Shown here piece by piece: positions 6,780 through 64,000 of a stretch of 64,000 nt of DNA; position 1 is the first letter of the stretch; every line of letters starts with the position of its first letter. Source of the DNA: Escherichia coli (GTDB lineage: Bacteria > Pseudomonadota > Gammaproteobacteria > Enterobacterales > Enterobacteriaceae); assembly GCF_001677475.2 (NCBI RefSeq), contig NZ_CP015229.1, one strand, 5' to 3'. Both the position numbers and the translations under genes were made by a program. The notes under the pieces were generated by a model. The model worked only from the letters and a program-made list of their open reading frames with translations. It had not been told where the DNA came from and made no database searches.

Positions 6780-8093
6780 ATGATAACCAATACAAAGCTT
6801 GACCCGATTGAAACCGCGTCTGTTGATGAGTTACAGGCGTTGCAAACACAGCGTCTGAAATGGACGCTCAAACACGCGTATGAAAATGTGCCGATGTATC
6901 GGCGCAAATTCGACGCAGCAGGCGTACATCCTGATGATTTCAGGGAACTTTCAGACCTGCGTAAATTTCCCTGTACCACCAAACAGGATCTGCGCGACAA
7001 CTATCCCTTCGACACCTTTGCCGTGCCGATGGAACAAGTGGTGCGCATTCATGCTTCTTCGGGAACCACAGGTAAACCGACAGTTGTCGGCTATACGCAA
7101 AACGATATTGATAACTGGGCCAATATTGTAGCGCGTTCCTTGCGTGCGGCAGGTGGCACGCCCAAAGACAAAATTCATGTTGCCTATGGTTACGGCCTGT
7201 TTACTGGTGGGCTGGGCGCGCACTATGGTGCCGAACGTCTGGGCGCTACGGTGATCCCGATGTCTGGCGGGCAGACGGAAAAACAAGCGCAACTGATCCG
7301 CGATTTTCAACCAGATATGATCATGGTTACGCCATCTTATTGCCTTAACCTGATTGAAGAGCTGGAGCGGCAGTTGGGCGGTGATGCCAGCGGTTGCTCG
7401 CTGCGAGTTGGAGTGTTTGGTGCTGAGCCGTGGACACAGGCCATGCGTAAAGAGATTGAGCGTCGCCTGGGGATCACCGCACTGGATATTTACGGCCTGT
7501 CAGAAGTGATGGGGCCGGGGGTGGCGATGGAGTGTCTGGAAACTACCGACGGCCCAACCATTTGGGAAGATCATTTCTATCCTGAAATTGTTAATCCTCA
7601 GGACGGCACACCACTTGCCGATGGCGAACATGGCGAACTGTTATTCACCACGCTGACCAAAGAAGCATTGCCGGTCATTCGTTACCGCACGCGTGATTTA
7701 ACCCGACTGTTACCAGGAACGGCGCGGACTATGCGCCGCATGGATCGCATCAGCGGACGCAGCGATGACATGTTGATCATTCGCGGTGTAAATGTATTCC
7801 CGTCACAATTGGAAGAAGAGATTGTCAAATTCGAACATTTATCGCCGCATTACCAACTGGAGGTGAACCGCCGGGGGCATCTTGATTCACTTTCTGTGAA
7901 AGTGGAGTTGAAAGAAAGTAGCCTGACATTGACGCATGAGCAGCGTTGCCAGGTGTGCCACCAGTTGCGCCATCGGATTAAGTCGATGGTGGGGATCTCT
8001 ACCGATGTGATGATCGTTAACTGTGGCAGTATCCCGCGTTCAGAAGGCAAGGCGTGTCGGGTGTTTGATCTGCGCAATATTGTTGGTGCCTGA
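6780..8093 (+). CDS. paaK: Phenylacetate-CoA ligase (437 aa)
   Basis: Start at ATG 6780 (MITNTKLDPIE) within track ORF 6696..8093; adenylate-forming enzyme motif SSGTTGKPT. Confidence 0.9.
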   Translation: MITNTKLDPIETASVDELQALQTQRLKWTLKHAYENVPMYRRKFDAAGVHPDDFRELSDLRKFPCTTKQDLRDNYPFDTFAVPMEQVVRIHASSGTTGKPTVVGYTQNDIDNWANIVARSLRAAGGTPKDKIHVAYGYGLFTGGLGAHYGAERLGATVIPMSGGQTEKQAQLIRDFQPDMIMVTPSYCLNLIEELERQLGGDASGCSLRVGVFGAEPWTQAMRKEIERRLGITALDIYGLSEVMGPGVAMECLETTDGPTIWEDHFYPEIVNPQDGTPLADGEHGELLFTTLTKEALPVIRYRTRDLTRLLPGTARTMRRMDRISGRSDDMLIIRGVNVFPSQLEEEIVKFEHLSPHYQLEVNRRGHLDSLSVKVELKESSLTLTHEQRCQVCHQLRHRIKSMVGISTDVMIVNCGSIPRSEGKACRVFDLRNIVGA

Positions 8094-58445: not shown

Positions 58446-59945
58446 TTAACTCGCCGTTTCAGGTTTAAACACAATTTCCTGTTTTTCTTCATCTTCCTCG
58501 ACGACTGGCGCAGTGCTGTGAATTTCAGCAACGCGTTTGCGCACACCAAACCAGCCTATAACCAGCAGAATACCGATAATCGGCAGCGCCGCGATGGTAT
58601 AAGTCCCGTTCGGGTAATCGAATGCCATCAGCACCAGGACACTCAGTAAAAACAGTAATGTCAGCCAGGAAGTGAAGGGCGCGCCAGGCAGTTTAAAACT
58701 GACATCCGCTGCTTTGCCTTCTTTAATCGCTTTACGCAGGCGCATCTGGCACACGATGATAAACGCCCATGAAGCGATGATTCCCAGCGACGCGAAGTTC
58801 AACACAATCTCAAATACGCGCGACGGCACCAGATAGTTGAGGAATACGCCGACGACATAAACGACCAGTGTCGCCAGAATCCCGGCATACGGCACATGCT
58901 GACGGCTCATTTTCGCCATAAAACTCGGTGCGGAACCGCCCATCGCCATCGAGCGTAGAATACGTCCGGTGCAGTACAGACCTGAGTTCAGGCTGGAGAG
59001 GGCAGCGGTCAGCACCACAATGTTCATAATGCTGCCGATGTACGGCACACCCAGTTTAGAGAAAAACGTCACGAACGGACTTTGCCCAGCCTGATACGCG
59101 CTCCACGGCAATAACATAACCAGCAACACCACGGAGCCGACGTAAAACAGGCCAATACGCCAAATCACACTGTTAATCGCTTTAGGCACCATGGTCTGCG
59201 GATCTTTACATTCTCCGGCAGCTGTACCCACCATTTCAATGGAGGCAAAAGCAAACACTACGCCCTGAATCAACACCAGAGCAGGAAGCAAACCGTGGGG
59301 GAAGAAGCCGCCATTATCGGTGATTAAATGAAAGCCAGTGGTGTTGCCATCCAGCGGCTGACCACTACCGAGGAACACTGTACCCACGACCAAAAAGGTC
59401 ACAATGGCGAGCACTTTAATAAGCGCAAACCAGAACTCCATCTCCGCAAACCATTTCACACCAATCATATTCATGGTGCCAACGATGGTAAGTGCAGCGA
59501 GCGCAAAGACCCACTGCGGCACGCCGCCAAACGCCCCCCAGTAATGCATATACAGCGCTACAGCGGTGATATCGACAATCCCCGTCATCGCCCAGTTAAT
59601 GAAGTACATCCAGCCTGCAACGTAAGCGGCTTTCTCTCCTAAAAACTCACGGGCATAAGAGACAAAGCTGCCACTGGAAGGGCGATGTAACACCAGCTCA
59701 CCCAATGCACGCAGAATAAAAAACGAAAACAGGCCACATATTAAATAAACCAGTGCCAGCGCAGGACCCGCCATTTGCAGTCGGGCTCCTGCACCTAAAA
59801 ACAAGCCGGTGCCAATCGCGCCGCCAATGGCGATCATCTGCACCTGGCGATTGCCCATCGCTTTGTGATACCCCTCTTCGTGGGCATTAAGCCAGCGGCG
59901 TTTCGCGGCGTGTTGATCTGGAGTGTCGGTGTCGTGTTTACTCAT
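58446..59945 (-). CDS. ansP: L-asparagine permease (APC family)
   Basis: Start at ATG 59945 (MSKHDTDTPDQHAAKRRWLNAHEEGYHKAM) inside track ORF 58446..59996; 499 aa. Confidence 0.9.
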   Translation of the reverse strand: MSKHDTDTPDQHAAKRRWLNAHEEGYHKAMGNRQVQMIAIGGAIGTGLFLGAGARLQMAGPALALVYLICGLFSFFILRALGELVLHRPSSGSFVSYAREFLGEKAAYVAGWMYFINWAMTGIVDITAVALYMHYWGAFGGVPQWVFALAALTIVGTMNMIGVKWFAEMEFWFALIKVLAIVTFLVVGTVFLGSGQPLDGNTTGFHLITDNGGFFPHGLLPALVLIQGVVFAFASIEMVGTAAGECKDPQTMVPKAINSVIWRIGLFYVGSVVLLVMLLPWSAYQAGQSPFVTFFSKLGVPYIGSIMNIVVLTAALSSLNSGLYCTGRILRSMAMGGSAPSFMAKMSRQHVPYAGILATLVVYVVGVFLNYLVPSRVFEIVLNFASLGIIASWAFIIVCQMRLRKAIKEGKAADVSFKLPGAPFTSWLTLLFLLSVLVLMAFDYPNGTYTIAALPIIGILLVIGWFGVRKRVAEIHSTAPVVEEDEEKQEIVFKPETAS

Positions 59946-60295
59946 TGCTCTCCCTGATTGCTTTAATGAAAAAGTCATATAAGTTGCCATGAACAATGTT
60001 TATTCATCCTGGCGATGACAAGATTCACCATTATTCTTTATGGGTATAACTGTCGGCGCAGAATCCTACCTTTTATCGTGTAACGATGCAAAATAATCCC
60101 GCTATAAATATGAGGGGATAAAGGCGGCCGGCAACAAAATAGCAACCTGATGAAATTTTGACGGAAACAACCACTATTGGTTTGATGATGCCCGACGGCA
60201 GTCCTACTCTTGCGCCACTCGTTCGTCGCTCTGAACGCCAGTGGTTGCAGTGGACACTGGCGTGGTTGGCTCATTGAATAGTGAGGTGCTAGCAC

Positions 60296-60472
60296 ATGAC
60301 GGGTTTCAGGGGTAATACACCAAATACCAATACAATTGCTGATTATATGAGCCAATTGCCGATGTTACAGAAAAGGCTAAAAAATGTAAGAGGCATGCAG
60401 GATGATAAACGCGCTATTGCCCAACAGGGGTTTCTGGAATTAGTCCTGTTCCATGGTCATTACAACTCTTAA
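60296..60472 (+). CDS. Hypothetical small protein (58 aa); identity not recognised
   Basis: ATG 60296 preceded by GAGGTG; hand translation MTGFRGNTPNTNTIADYMSQLPMLQKRLKNVRGMQDDKRAIAQQGFLELVLFHGHYNS; not in ORF track. Confidence 0.25.
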   Translation: MTGFRGNTPNTNTIADYMSQLPMLQKRLKNVRGMQDDKRAIAQQGFLELVLFHGHYNS

Positions 60473-60882
60473 AACATTACTTCAATATAATTAATGTGTA
60501 TATCATTCCCGATATTAATTTATGAAGTGAATTTGATATATTCCGAATTCTTAATTTACATTACTAATGTATGGGGCATAACGTTAAGATTGCTATGTGC
60601 AGATTAACATATCAGGGTGGGGCGGTAGCGTTTACAGATATTAATCAATTGATGAGAATTATGTTAACTGCGTAATCATTTGCATCGATTATTGATATTG
60701 AAGATAGATTAATAAAAATGCTGAGAATTAATGTTAAAAAATCATAACGGGAAACGTTGATAACTTGCTTTGATTTCATTTTCTATGAAGATGATGTCAT
60801 CAATACTGTATAAAGTGGAAATGTTGAACATCAAAGAGCGTTTGTGTTTTATCTGAAAGATATTATTTCCAGGGGGAAGGAT

Positions 60883-61013
60883 ATGTCATTAAGGAGAATG
60901 ACATCTGGTGAATTAACATTGGCCAGATCGATTTTTGAGAATACAATTGATTATAGCAAGGTATGGATCCACAATGAAAAATATTTGCCTGGTCAAGGGG
61001 AAAGAACAGCGAT
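60883..61013 (+). pseudogene. 5' fragment of a host ORF interrupted by the prophage insertion
   Basis: ATG 60883 with GGAAGGA RBS; MSLRRMTSGELTLARSIFENTIDYSKVWIHNEKYLPGQGERTAI then reads straight into the Mu-type end at 61014 (track ORF 60844..61083 is the chimera). Confidence 0.4.
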
Positions 61014-61190
61014 TGTATTGATTCACTTGAAGTACGAAAAAAACCGGGAGGACATTGGATTATTCGGGATTTGGCGGGATTAGATTTAGTGGGGCTTGCA
61101 AGCCTGTAGGACAGATTTTAGCCGTTACATCTTGAAACGCGAAAGATTGTTGGAAACAGCTTTTGATTCATTAAAGACACGAAAAGCAAT
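61014..61190 (+). repeat. Prophage attL with transposase end-binding sites L1, L2 and L3
   Basis: L1 about 61019-61040 (TGATTCACTTGAAGTACGAAAA), L2 about 61128-61147 (CTTGAAACGCGAAAGA), L3 about 61164-61186 (TGATTCATTAAAGACACGAAAAG); terminal 5'-TG. Confidence 0.8.
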
Positions 61191-61352
61191 TACTTCACGC
61201 ATCATTTCAAGTACAGCTTCAAAAATGCTTCAAAAACGGTAACAACCAGGCTTTCGGCAAGTGATGTGTGTCAAAAACAATCATCACTGTTTGGGTATCT
61301 TACATATGTAATTACCTAGAGTGAAGTTTATGTCTTAGCTATTACCTGGTTG

Positions 61353-61877
61353 TTATACAGCTTTCTTTACATCGTTTTCTCTTACAGGGAAATTATGTTC
61401 TTTGCCTTCATACTGAGACAAAATCTCTCTCACTTTTTCAGGTGGTAATGCCTGAAGAGTTTGCAGGGTTTTCTGTTGATCCACAGTAATCCCTAATGCC
61501 TCTAATGCCTTATCTTTACTGACAATTGTAGGCATAAGTCCTTTAATCCCTGCTACACGAATGATCTCCACAGCTGCGGCCTGCTCATCTGGTGTTAAGA
61601 AGCTCATTGCATAAATTAGCCTCTCATCAACTGTATGGGCGATTGATGTATGCACTGGTTTATCAGAAAGTGAGGCTCCTTTAATGGCCCTACGTGTTTC
61701 TTCTGGCAGACTGTTGATGTGATACTCATAAGCGACACCTTTCCCACCGTGACGCTGACGTTTTACCCAATCTTCCGCCACAGCTTTCCTGGTAATGTTA
61801 GTCGCCAACTTTGGTACACCAGGCATCCCTTCCAGCTCTTTCGCATTAAACCATTCTTTGATTTCAAAAGACATCAT
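61353..61877 (-). CDS. c: Mu-type lysogeny repressor (174 aa)
   Basis: Track ORF; C-terminus ...NDVKKAV resembles Mu repressor ...QEVKKAV; N-terminal region resembles the transposase N-terminus; leftward orientation as in Mu. Confidence 0.85.
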   Translation of the reverse strand: MMSFEIKEWFNAKELEGMPGVPKLATNITRKAVAEDWVKRQRHGGKGVAYEYHINSLPEETRRAIKGASLSDKPVHTSIAHTVDERLIYAMSFLTPDEQAAAVEIIRVAGIKGLMPTIVSKDKALEALGITVDQQKTLQTLQALPPEKVREILSQYEGKEHNFPVRENDVKKAV

Positions 61878-62057
61878 TTAAAATCCTAGCGATTTCAATA
61901 GAGACAAAATAAATTCATATAAAAATCATGCCGTTATATGAAATCATGGTAAATACTTTCAAATCTCTATTGATTTGAAAATGATTCCACACTACATTGC
62001 ACGATATGCCGTGAGCTACTTTATAGCGTAGCTCACGGGGGAATCTGAAAGGATTAC
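61878..62057. promoter_or_regulatory. Prophage early control region (operators, divergent promoters, transposition enhancer) by position
   Basis: Intergenic AT-rich region between divergent repressor and ner; individual operators not resolved by eye. Confidence 0.5.
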
Positions 62058-62062
62058 ATGAA

Positions 62063-62284
62063 ATGCATATGAATAAAAGAACTAACCGCCAAGATTGGCA
62101 CAGAGCTGACATCGTTGCAGAGCTACGAAAACGCAATATGTCACTAGCTGAATTGGGAAGATCTAATCATCTTTCGTCTTCAACATTAAAAAATGCTTTG
62201 GATAAGAGATATCCGAAAGCGGAGAAAATCATTGCAGATGCACTGGGAATGACACCGCAAGATATTTGGCCGTCTCGATACTAG
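62063..62284 (+). CDS. ner: Ner-like DNA-binding regulator of early transcription (73 aa)
   Basis: Track ORF; [33 protein letters not shown]... resembles Mu Ner (...DWHRADVIAGLKKRKLSLSALSR...); AAGGA RBS. Confidence 0.85.
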
Positions 62285-62291
62285 GTGCGCT

Positions 62292-64000
62292 ATGAAAGAA
62301 TGGTATACAGCAAAAGAGTTGCTCGGTTTGGCAGGTTTACCAAAGCAAGCCACTAACATTACACGTAAGGCACAAAGAGAAGGCTGGGAGTTCAGGCAGG
62401 TTGCAGGGACTAAAGGTGTATCATTTGAATTCAATATCAAATCATTCCCTGTCGCATTACGTGCTGAAATTCTGTTGCAACAAGGGAGAATTGAAACAAG
62501 CCAGGGGTATTTTGAAATCGCCCGCCCCACGCTGGAAGCCCACGATTACGATCGCGGGGCACTGTGGAGCAAATGGGATAAAGCCAGCGATTCCCAGCGC
62601 AGACTTGCTGAAAAATGGTTGCCTGCAGTTCAGGCCGCAGACGAAATGCTGAACCAGGGGATTTCAACAAAAACGGCTTTTGCGACCGTTGCAGGACATT
62701 ACCAGGTCAGCGCATCCACTTTGCGAGACAAGTATTACCAGGTACAGAAGTTTGCGAAGCCTGACTGGGCGGCTGCACTTGTTGATGGACGTGGTGCATC
62801 TCGTCGCAATGTTCACAAAAGTGAATTTGACGAGGATGCCTGGCAGTTTCTGATTGCAGATTATCTGCGACCGGAAAAACCCGCCTTCCGCAAATGTTAT
62901 GAGCGTCTGGAACTGGCAGCCCGCGAGCATGGCTGGAGTATTCCCTCCCGTGCCACGGCCTTTCGCCGGATTCAGCAACTGGACGAGGCAATGGTTGTTG
63001 CCTGTCGTGAAGGTGAACATGCACTGATGCATCTGATACCGGCACAGCAGCGAACTGTGGAACACCTGGACGCCATGCAGTGGATCAACGGCGACGGTTA
63101 TCTGCATAACGTCTTTGTACGCTGGTTTAACGGTGATGTGATCCGCCCGAAAACATGGTTCTGGCAGGATGTGAAAACCCGAAAAATTCTGGGCTGGCGC
63201 TGCGATGTGAGCGAGAACATTGATTCAATTCGCCTCTCGTTCATGGATGTGGTGACACGCTACGGCATCCCGGAAGATTTTCACATCACCATTGATAACA
63301 CCCGTGGGGCAGCGAATAAATGGCTGACGGGGGGCGCGCCCAATCGTTACCGCTTTAAGGTGAAAGAGGACGATCCAAAGGGACTGTTTTTACTGATGGG
63401 CGCGAAAATGCACTGGACAAGCGTTGTTGCCGGTAAAGGCTGGGGCCAGGCAAAACCTGTTGAACGTGCTTTCGGTGTTGGTGGGCTTGAGGAATACGTT
63501 GATAAGCATCCGGCACTGGCTGGCGCATATACGGGGCCAAATCCGCAGGCAAAACCTGATAACTATGGCGACCGTGCTGTTGATGCAGAGCTGTTTCTGA
63601 AAACCCTTGCTGAAGGTGTGGCGATGTTCAATGCCAGAACAGGCCGTGAAACAGAAATGTGCGGGGGCAAACTCTCGTTTGATGATGTTTTCGAGCGTGA
63701 ATACGCCAGAACGATTGTGCGTAAGCCAACCGAAGAACAAAAACGGATGCTGTTACTGCCTGCCGAAGCGGTGAACGTTTCACGCAAAGGCGAGTTTACG
63801 CTTAAAGTTGGCGGCTCCCTTAAAGGCGCGAAAAACGTTTATTACAACATGGCGTTAATGAATGCAGGCGTGAAAAAAGTTGTGGTCAGGTTTGATCCGC
63901 AGCAGCTACACAGCACAGTTTATTGCTACACCCTGGACGGTCGGTTTATCTGTGAAGCGGAATGTCTGGCACCTGTTGCATTTAATGATGCTGCGGCAGG
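62292..64000 (+). CDS. A: MuA-type DDE transposase, N-terminal ~569 codons (3' end outside window)
   Basis: Not in ORF track because there is no stop before the window end; hand translation [32 protein letters not shown]... with DDE residues at codons 268 (INGDGY), 335 (ITIDNTRG) and 391 (PVERAF). Confidence 0.9.

Follow-up and report, generated by a model that had tools for sequence, protein, structure and literature searches.

The left end of a D108-type Mu-family prophage near ansP in an E. coli-like chromosome

What is the DNA that takes over from the core chromosome at position 61014 of this Escherichia coli sequence, and how did it come to lie there? The window, by which we mean the whole 64,000-nucleotide stretch that was analysed, is colinear E. 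coli core chromosome from 1 to 61013 (paa, hrpA, ydb, ydc, ansP), and the sequence from 61014 to the window end is that of a phage. Among 5,426 complete E. coli genomes, the best match to the backbone reaches 97.3–98.2% identity, and because its core genes are no closer than this to any of them, the host is taken to be a divergent Escherichia lineage. We conclude, with a probability of roughly 0.93, that we see here the left (c) end of a Muvirus mu prophage of the D108 immunity type, and that MuA-mediated transposition brought it into a divergent E. coli-like host. It is a known phage, the D108 variant of Mu, at a previously unrecorded site.

Comparison of positions 61014–64000 with 50,697 phage records by megablast aligned them with bases 1–2987 of phage D108 (GQ357916 / NC_013594) at 97.8% identity and 100% coverage (E=0), in a single ungapped piece with 66 mismatches in 2987 nt. 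The match opens at the first base of the phage genome; position 61014 is D108 base 1 (TGTATTGATTCAC...), and the string TGTATTGATTCACTTGAAGTACGAAAAAAACCGGGAGG begins there. A first-pass annotation made from the sequence had placed a Mu-type left end at this position, and the alignment bears it out. Of the two phages that it had named for comparison, D108 covers the whole query, whereas Mu records (NC_000929) match only query positions 1467–2987. The gene order (leftward c, then ner, A and B), the offsets of the L1–L3 sites and the ner gene itself are all the same in D108 as here. The c and A proteins of D108 each differ from those of the prophage by 3 amino acids, its B protein is 312 aa where a 319-aa variant is found here (in the Logan contig described below), and its chromosomal site is not that of the window prophage.

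Segment by segment, identity to D108 is 99.1% in attL, 98.7% in c and 96.8% in the operator region; identity to Mu is 80% in attL and 68% (heavily gapped) in c, and the operator region does not align with Mu. The ner gene is 100% identical to D108 and 61% to Mu, and the 5′ end of A 100% and 60%, respectively, although the remainder of A is 96.7% identical to D108 and 97.9% to Mu. Judged by these identities, this is the classical D108-versus-Mu pattern, in which the immunity module and the N-terminal operator/enhancer-binding domain of A differ and the remainder is near-identical. The first-pass annotation had called the element Mu/D108-like; the D108 part of that label stands and the Mu part does not, the immunity region being 60–68% identical to Mu. 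Its remark that the left-end DNA is similar but not identical to Mu agrees with the attL values and with the D108-type c, ner and 5′ end of A.

The relationships to the two type phages are nonetheless not uniform along the element. Mu shares the transposable-phage architecture and mechanism, has an identical L1 site at its terminus, and is 97.9% identical in A downstream of about codon 63, including the catalytic core represented by PDB 4fcy and 1bco; its immunity module is unlike that of the prophage, with c, the operators, ner and the A N-terminal domain 60–71% identical or unalignable. The 3′ two-thirds of A here are thus slightly nearer to Mu than to D108, a pattern that suggests the usual mosaic exchange within Muvirus. 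The left end of the Shigella phage SfMu (KP010268) is also D108-type and aligns with 95% of the query at 92.2% identity, but SfMu is further from the prophage than D108 is and its alignment splits into two pieces. The c and Ner proteins of SfMu are 89% and 98% identical to those of D108, and 24% and 47% to those of Mu (PMC4406740).

The attL segment (61014..61352, plus strand) starts 5′-TG. When the MuA-site consensus given in the D108 record, YMYNWRAARYRCGAAAR, was scored along the first 400 nt, three sites were found on the plus strand, in keeping with the three transposase-binding repeats reported at first. L1 (CACTTGAAGTACGAAAA, 61024..61040) matches the consensus at 17/17 positions, L2 (ATCTTGAAACGCGAAAG, 61129..61145) at 15/17 and L3 (CATTAAAGACACGAAAA, 61169..61185) at 16/17. 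Their offsets from the terminus, 11–27, 116–132 and 156–172, are those of Mu and D108; the D108 annotation places L1 and L3 at these same offsets, and the L2 offset is common to both phages. L1 is spaced from L2–L3, and L3 forms a direct repeat with L1.

Inward of attL lies the immunity region. The c gene (61353..61877, minus strand) encodes a D108-type lysogeny repressor of 174 aa (phrog_7148 transcriptional repressor, E=1.9e-88) that departs from D108 c by three substitutions, Y50N, A80V and D133E. It diverges from rightward ner and A, and B comes next in the identical Logan contig. The ner gene (62063..62284, plus strand) encodes a 73-aa early-transcription repressor (phrog_769, E=1.2e-34) that is 100% identical to that of D108 in both protein and DNA; its best NCBIfam match is of the SfsB/Nlp type and falls below the cutoff. 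A leftward repressor followed by a Ner homologue is what the first reading of the sequence had described. The divergent regulatory DNA between the two genes (61878..62062) comprises the putative operators and early promoter. At 62009–62038 lies a perfect inverted repeat, two 11-nt arms around an 8-nt spacer (CCGTGAGCTAC-N8-GTAGCTCACGG), the putative D108 Ner operator. A literature search for this operator gave nothing usable, and a scan of 60500–62400 for sigma-70 promoters and terminators showed nothing above shuffled background in the c–ner region; the operator and Ner-site assignments are putative, and draw on identity to D108 and on the background literature on that phage. Given that its c, its ner and the enhancer/operator-binding N-terminus of its A are all of D108 type, the prophage is predicted to be heteroimmune to Mu proper, and a lysogen should be immune to D108-type phages and not to Mu.

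The transposase gene A (62292..64000, plus strand) is cut by the window end after the first 569 of 662 codons. Its product carries the Pfam domains HTH_Tnp_Mu_1, HTH_Tnp_Mu_2, DDE_2 (2.4e-136) and Mu-transpos_C (PF02316, PF09039, PF02914 and PF09299), is near-identical over residues 76–569 to the MuA transpososome chain of PDB 4fcy, and also matches 1bco. Its catalytic triad, D268, D335 and E391, lines up with D269, D336 and E392 of Mu in identical local context, and is encoded at 63093–63095, 63294–63296 and 63462–63464. The claim of a MuA-type transposase with an intact DDE triad is thereby upheld.

The point of insertion can be fixed to the base. Alignment with two E. coli genomes in which the site is empty, AR_0077 and MEI003, puts the switch from host to phage exactly at 61013/61014. 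Identity between the window and both empty sites runs to ...AACAGCGAT (also written ...GGGGAAAGAACAGCGAT); past the breakpoint the empty sites read (A/G)ACCCCAAACGGGG, whereas the window reads D108 from base 1 onward, such that the 5′-TG terminus of the element stands precisely where the host sequence stops. The host pentamer abutting the phage end, GCGAT (61009..61013), is present as a single copy in the empty sites and is presumed to be the left copy of a 5-bp target-site duplication. It fits the target preference of Mu, N-Y-(G/C)-R-N. The element had been described as lying downstream of ansP; that gene is on the minus strand (58446–59996), and the prophage is instead about 1 kb upstream of it.

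The insertion falls in accessory DNA, in that 80% or more of 59900–61013 is covered in only 229 of the 5,426 complete genomes. Empty-site loci and their annotation identify 60884..61013 (plus strand) as the 5′ fragment of an interrupted host ORF, comprising 43 codons plus 1 nt. In the empty-site genomes this ORF is 531 bp and encodes 176 aa with an HEMMH (HExxH) motif; RefSeq names its product 'type IV secretion protein Rhs' or 'hypothetical', and it has no family match in Pfam or NCBIfam. The interrupted gene is the first of an accessory vgrG/DcrB/Rhs type VI cluster; next in order come a gene for 118 aa, vgrG, a DcrB-related gene and an Rhs core gene. The 118-aa neighbour weakly matches NF045617, 'putative T6SS immunity periplasmic lipoprotein', at 30.9 bits, below the cutoff of 43.

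On the RefSeq 176-aa model the phage is inserted after codon 43. Other gene callers start the protein at M50, giving 127 aa, and the phage end then lies 16 nt upstream of the start codon. The insertion either splits the 176-aa ORF or separates the gene from its promoter and upstream region; under both gene models the gene is cut off from that upstream region. A 66-aa chimeric ORF crosses the junction (60884–61083). A 79-aa chimera with a GTG start had no exact-protein record. We considered the 127-aa 3′ fragment, which occurs in two allelic forms, as a marker of the right junction, and rejected it on finding that it is a normal gene call in intact loci.

The 66-aa chimeric product is on record exactly in a second assembly, Logan contig ERR10434734_269 (10,771 bp, reported for 3 samples). 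Over the flank and the whole 2,987 bases of phage sequence, the DNA of this contig matches the window without a difference, and it runs on through a full-length A of 662 aa and a MuB-type protein of 319 aa. With this contig the visible part of the element grows to about 4.3 kb, compared with about 3 kb in the window.

Close relatives of the prophage are found elsewhere in E. coli. The D108-type prophages of STEC1575 (NZ_CP116044), E24377A (NC_009801) and UMNF18 are 98–99% identical over the 3 kb, and that of STEC1575 reaches 99.8% over the immunity region. The prophage thus has closer counterparts among E. coli prophages (98–99.8%) than the host backbone has among complete E. coli genomes, a relation that fits recent horizontal acquisition of the prophage by a divergent lineage. 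A D108-type immunity region occurs in 47 of the 5,426 complete genomes, and in 39 of these the match spans 80% or more of the query; at about 0.9%, this immunity type is uncommon. The identical c protein is found in 187 collection blocks. Ten loci shown with this c occupy nine other host sites (two loci share one flank), all abutting the TGTATTG... terminus, and such varied host flanks fit what is expected of near-random transposition. Likewise each D108-type prophage in E. coli has a site of its own (pduA, potE, yehR, ssuA, nrdE and others). The closest complete relative, that of STEC1575, lies just upstream of pduA, is 33,972 bp long, has TG...CA termini and is flanked by a 5-bp duplication, TTGCA. 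It is shortened, with a tail-fibre pseudogene and no annotation of gin. The ends and duplication in STEC1575, together with the varied sites, are hallmarks of Mu-type transposition at near-random positions.

The D108 genome is 37,235 bp, and we expect an element of 34–37 kb here, of which the first 3–4.3 kb or so are the basis for the assignments. A complete transposition product would have its right end, ...TTTTCGTGCGCCGCTTCA-3′ (GCG(Y)TTTTCGTGCGCCGCTTCA), about 33–39 kb on, past the window end together with the second GCGAT copy, and an intact right junction would read GCGAT(A/G)ACCCCAAACGG (also given as GCGAT(A/G)ACCCCAAACGGGGAAATG). A 23-mer probe of TTTTCGTGCGCCGCTTCA+GCGAT gave only chance Rhodobacteraceae matches in genome and metagenome collections that may or may not include the source genome; the chance match is in a uracil-DNA-glycosylase-like CDS (FFVRRFSDMDW). 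A 29-mer of the left junction had no match among the viral contigs of IMG/VR.

Could the element be phage Mu proper, with Mu-type immunity? We give this next to no chance. Identity to Mu is about 98% in the outermost 27 nt, which include L1, and in A beyond codon 63 or so, but across c, the operators, ner and the start of A the sequence is 97–100% identical to D108 and either 60–71% identical to Mu or unalignable with it; this reading was rejected on the partial Mu coverage in megablast and on the D108-type segment identities. It is also very improbable that the junction is an assembly chimera of a Mu-family contig end and the ansP region. The window does end inside the prophage, and the insertion junction is absent from all 5,426 complete RefSeq E. 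coli genomes; against this, the break coincides with the first base of the phage and with one defined position in the empty-site sequence, and the same junction was assembled separately in the Logan contig from 3 samples, albeit not fully independently if these include the window's own reads.

A defective remnant, with an intact left end and intact early genes in an element that is truncated, internally deleted or otherwise unable to yield phage, is unlikely as well, albeit well short of negligible. Decay does occur among D108-type relatives, as seen in the shortened STEC1575 prophage with its pseudogene and missing gin annotation and in a further relative, L023, whose lysozyme, Mor and Gam gene calls are split; the visible sequence, moreover, stops after gene B. 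All the ORFs visible in the window are, however, full length and less than 1–2% from functional D108, the c allele is shared exactly by the 187 collection blocks, and the Logan contig has both A and B at full length.

If the D108-type prophage behaves as its near-identity to Mu and D108 leads us to infer, its mechanism would be the one established for those phages. In the lysogen, the c repressor would bind operators between c and ner and keep the early promoter off, and upon derepression Ner, A and B would be made. MuA would bind L1–L3 and the R1–R3 sites of the right end to form the transpososome, nick at the terminal ...CA-3′ and join the ends to targets captured by MuB with a 5-bp stagger, and the phage would replicate by repeated transposition.

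A more specific reading, which we put forward tentatively and regard as possible though on balance doubtful, is that the insertion knocks out, or by polarity silences, the first gene of the accessory vgrG/Rhs T6SS cluster, in a host that is a divergent Escherichia lineage and a recent acquirer of an apparently active D108-type phage. If true, this would be a natural effector knock-out, with immunity left dependent on read-through from the phage end. We note that the gene concerned encodes an unclassified HExxH protein and sits beside the T6SS-immunity-like lipoprotein gene.

The value of the finding is mainly one of annotation, and it raises no new question on the biology of Mu. It marks the boundary of a mobile element of 34–37 kb, most of which would lie beyond the window. 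The strain is likely to be a lysogen of a D108-type phage, that is, of a mutator phage heteroimmune to Mu, and the T6SS cluster near ansP, in which a small head gene is interrupted, may be affected.

Insertion of the D108-type Mu prophage into an accessory vgrG/Rhs type VI cluster creates a chimeric open reading frame of 66 amino acids at the host/phage junction (60884–61083), consisting of 43 host codons, one codon that spans the junction, and 22 codons from the Mu left end. The exact 66-residue product is recorded in Logan contig ERR10434734_269. The host codons belong to an interrupted gene (60884–61013) whose uninterrupted counterpart is seen within 6984–7867 of locus L002, from an E. coli genome with an empty target site, where it encodes a 176-residue protein with an HEMMH motif. 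This protein has no matches in Pfam or NCBIfam and is unclassified, and there seems to be no basis for its RefSeq designation as a 'type IV secretion protein Rhs'. In L002 it is followed by a gene for a 118-residue protein and then by vgrG, a DcrB-like gene, and Rhs. The 118-residue protein weakly resembles the type VI secretion immunity lipoprotein NF045617 (30.9 bits, below the cutoff), and the two adjacent products may constitute an uncharacterised effector/immunity pair.

The start of the interrupted gene is ambiguous, with products of either 176 or 127 residues being predicted. A copy of the target locus in Logan contig ERR10498172_524 (L011) is intact except for a one-nucleotide deletion (GGGG to GGG, within 2270–2300) in the 5′ part of the 176-residue frame, and the 5′ 49 codons may therefore be dispensable or non-coding.

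The segment between ansP and the insertion point (59900–61013) is itself accessory: among complete E. coli genomes, 80% or more of it is covered in only 229 of 5,426. The first-pass annotation, in which the prophage was the sole non-core element of the window, is thus not quite right.

Within the prophage, the putative D108 Ner-binding site just upstream of ner is an inverted repeat whose two 11-nt arms match perfectly and are separated by 8 nt (62009–62038; CCGTGAGCTAC/GTAGCTCACGG). The closest complete relative, in E. coli STEC1575 (L026; NZ_CP116044.1, 3046000–3085400), is located immediately upstream of pduA and is only 33,972 bp long. One of its tail-fibre genes is a pseudogene and gin is not annotated, so part of the invertible G region is missing. 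The 23-mer right-junction probe matched a conserved 473-residue Rhodobacteraceae coding sequence (L008, L009 and L027; peptide FFVRRFSDMDW) with a uracil-DNA-glycosylase-like C-terminal part; we rejected this match as a coincidence, the gene being unrelated to Mu.

The host sequence (1–61013) is E. coli core in colinear order (paa, hrpA, ydb, ydc, ansP). Its identity to the complete E. coli genomes in RefSeq (5,426 in all) reaches just 97.3–98.2% at best. The prophage is closer to E. coli than is its own host backbone, with 98–99.8% identity to E. coli prophages. The low backbone identity suggests that the source strain represents a divergent Escherichia lineage that is under-represented among complete genomes.
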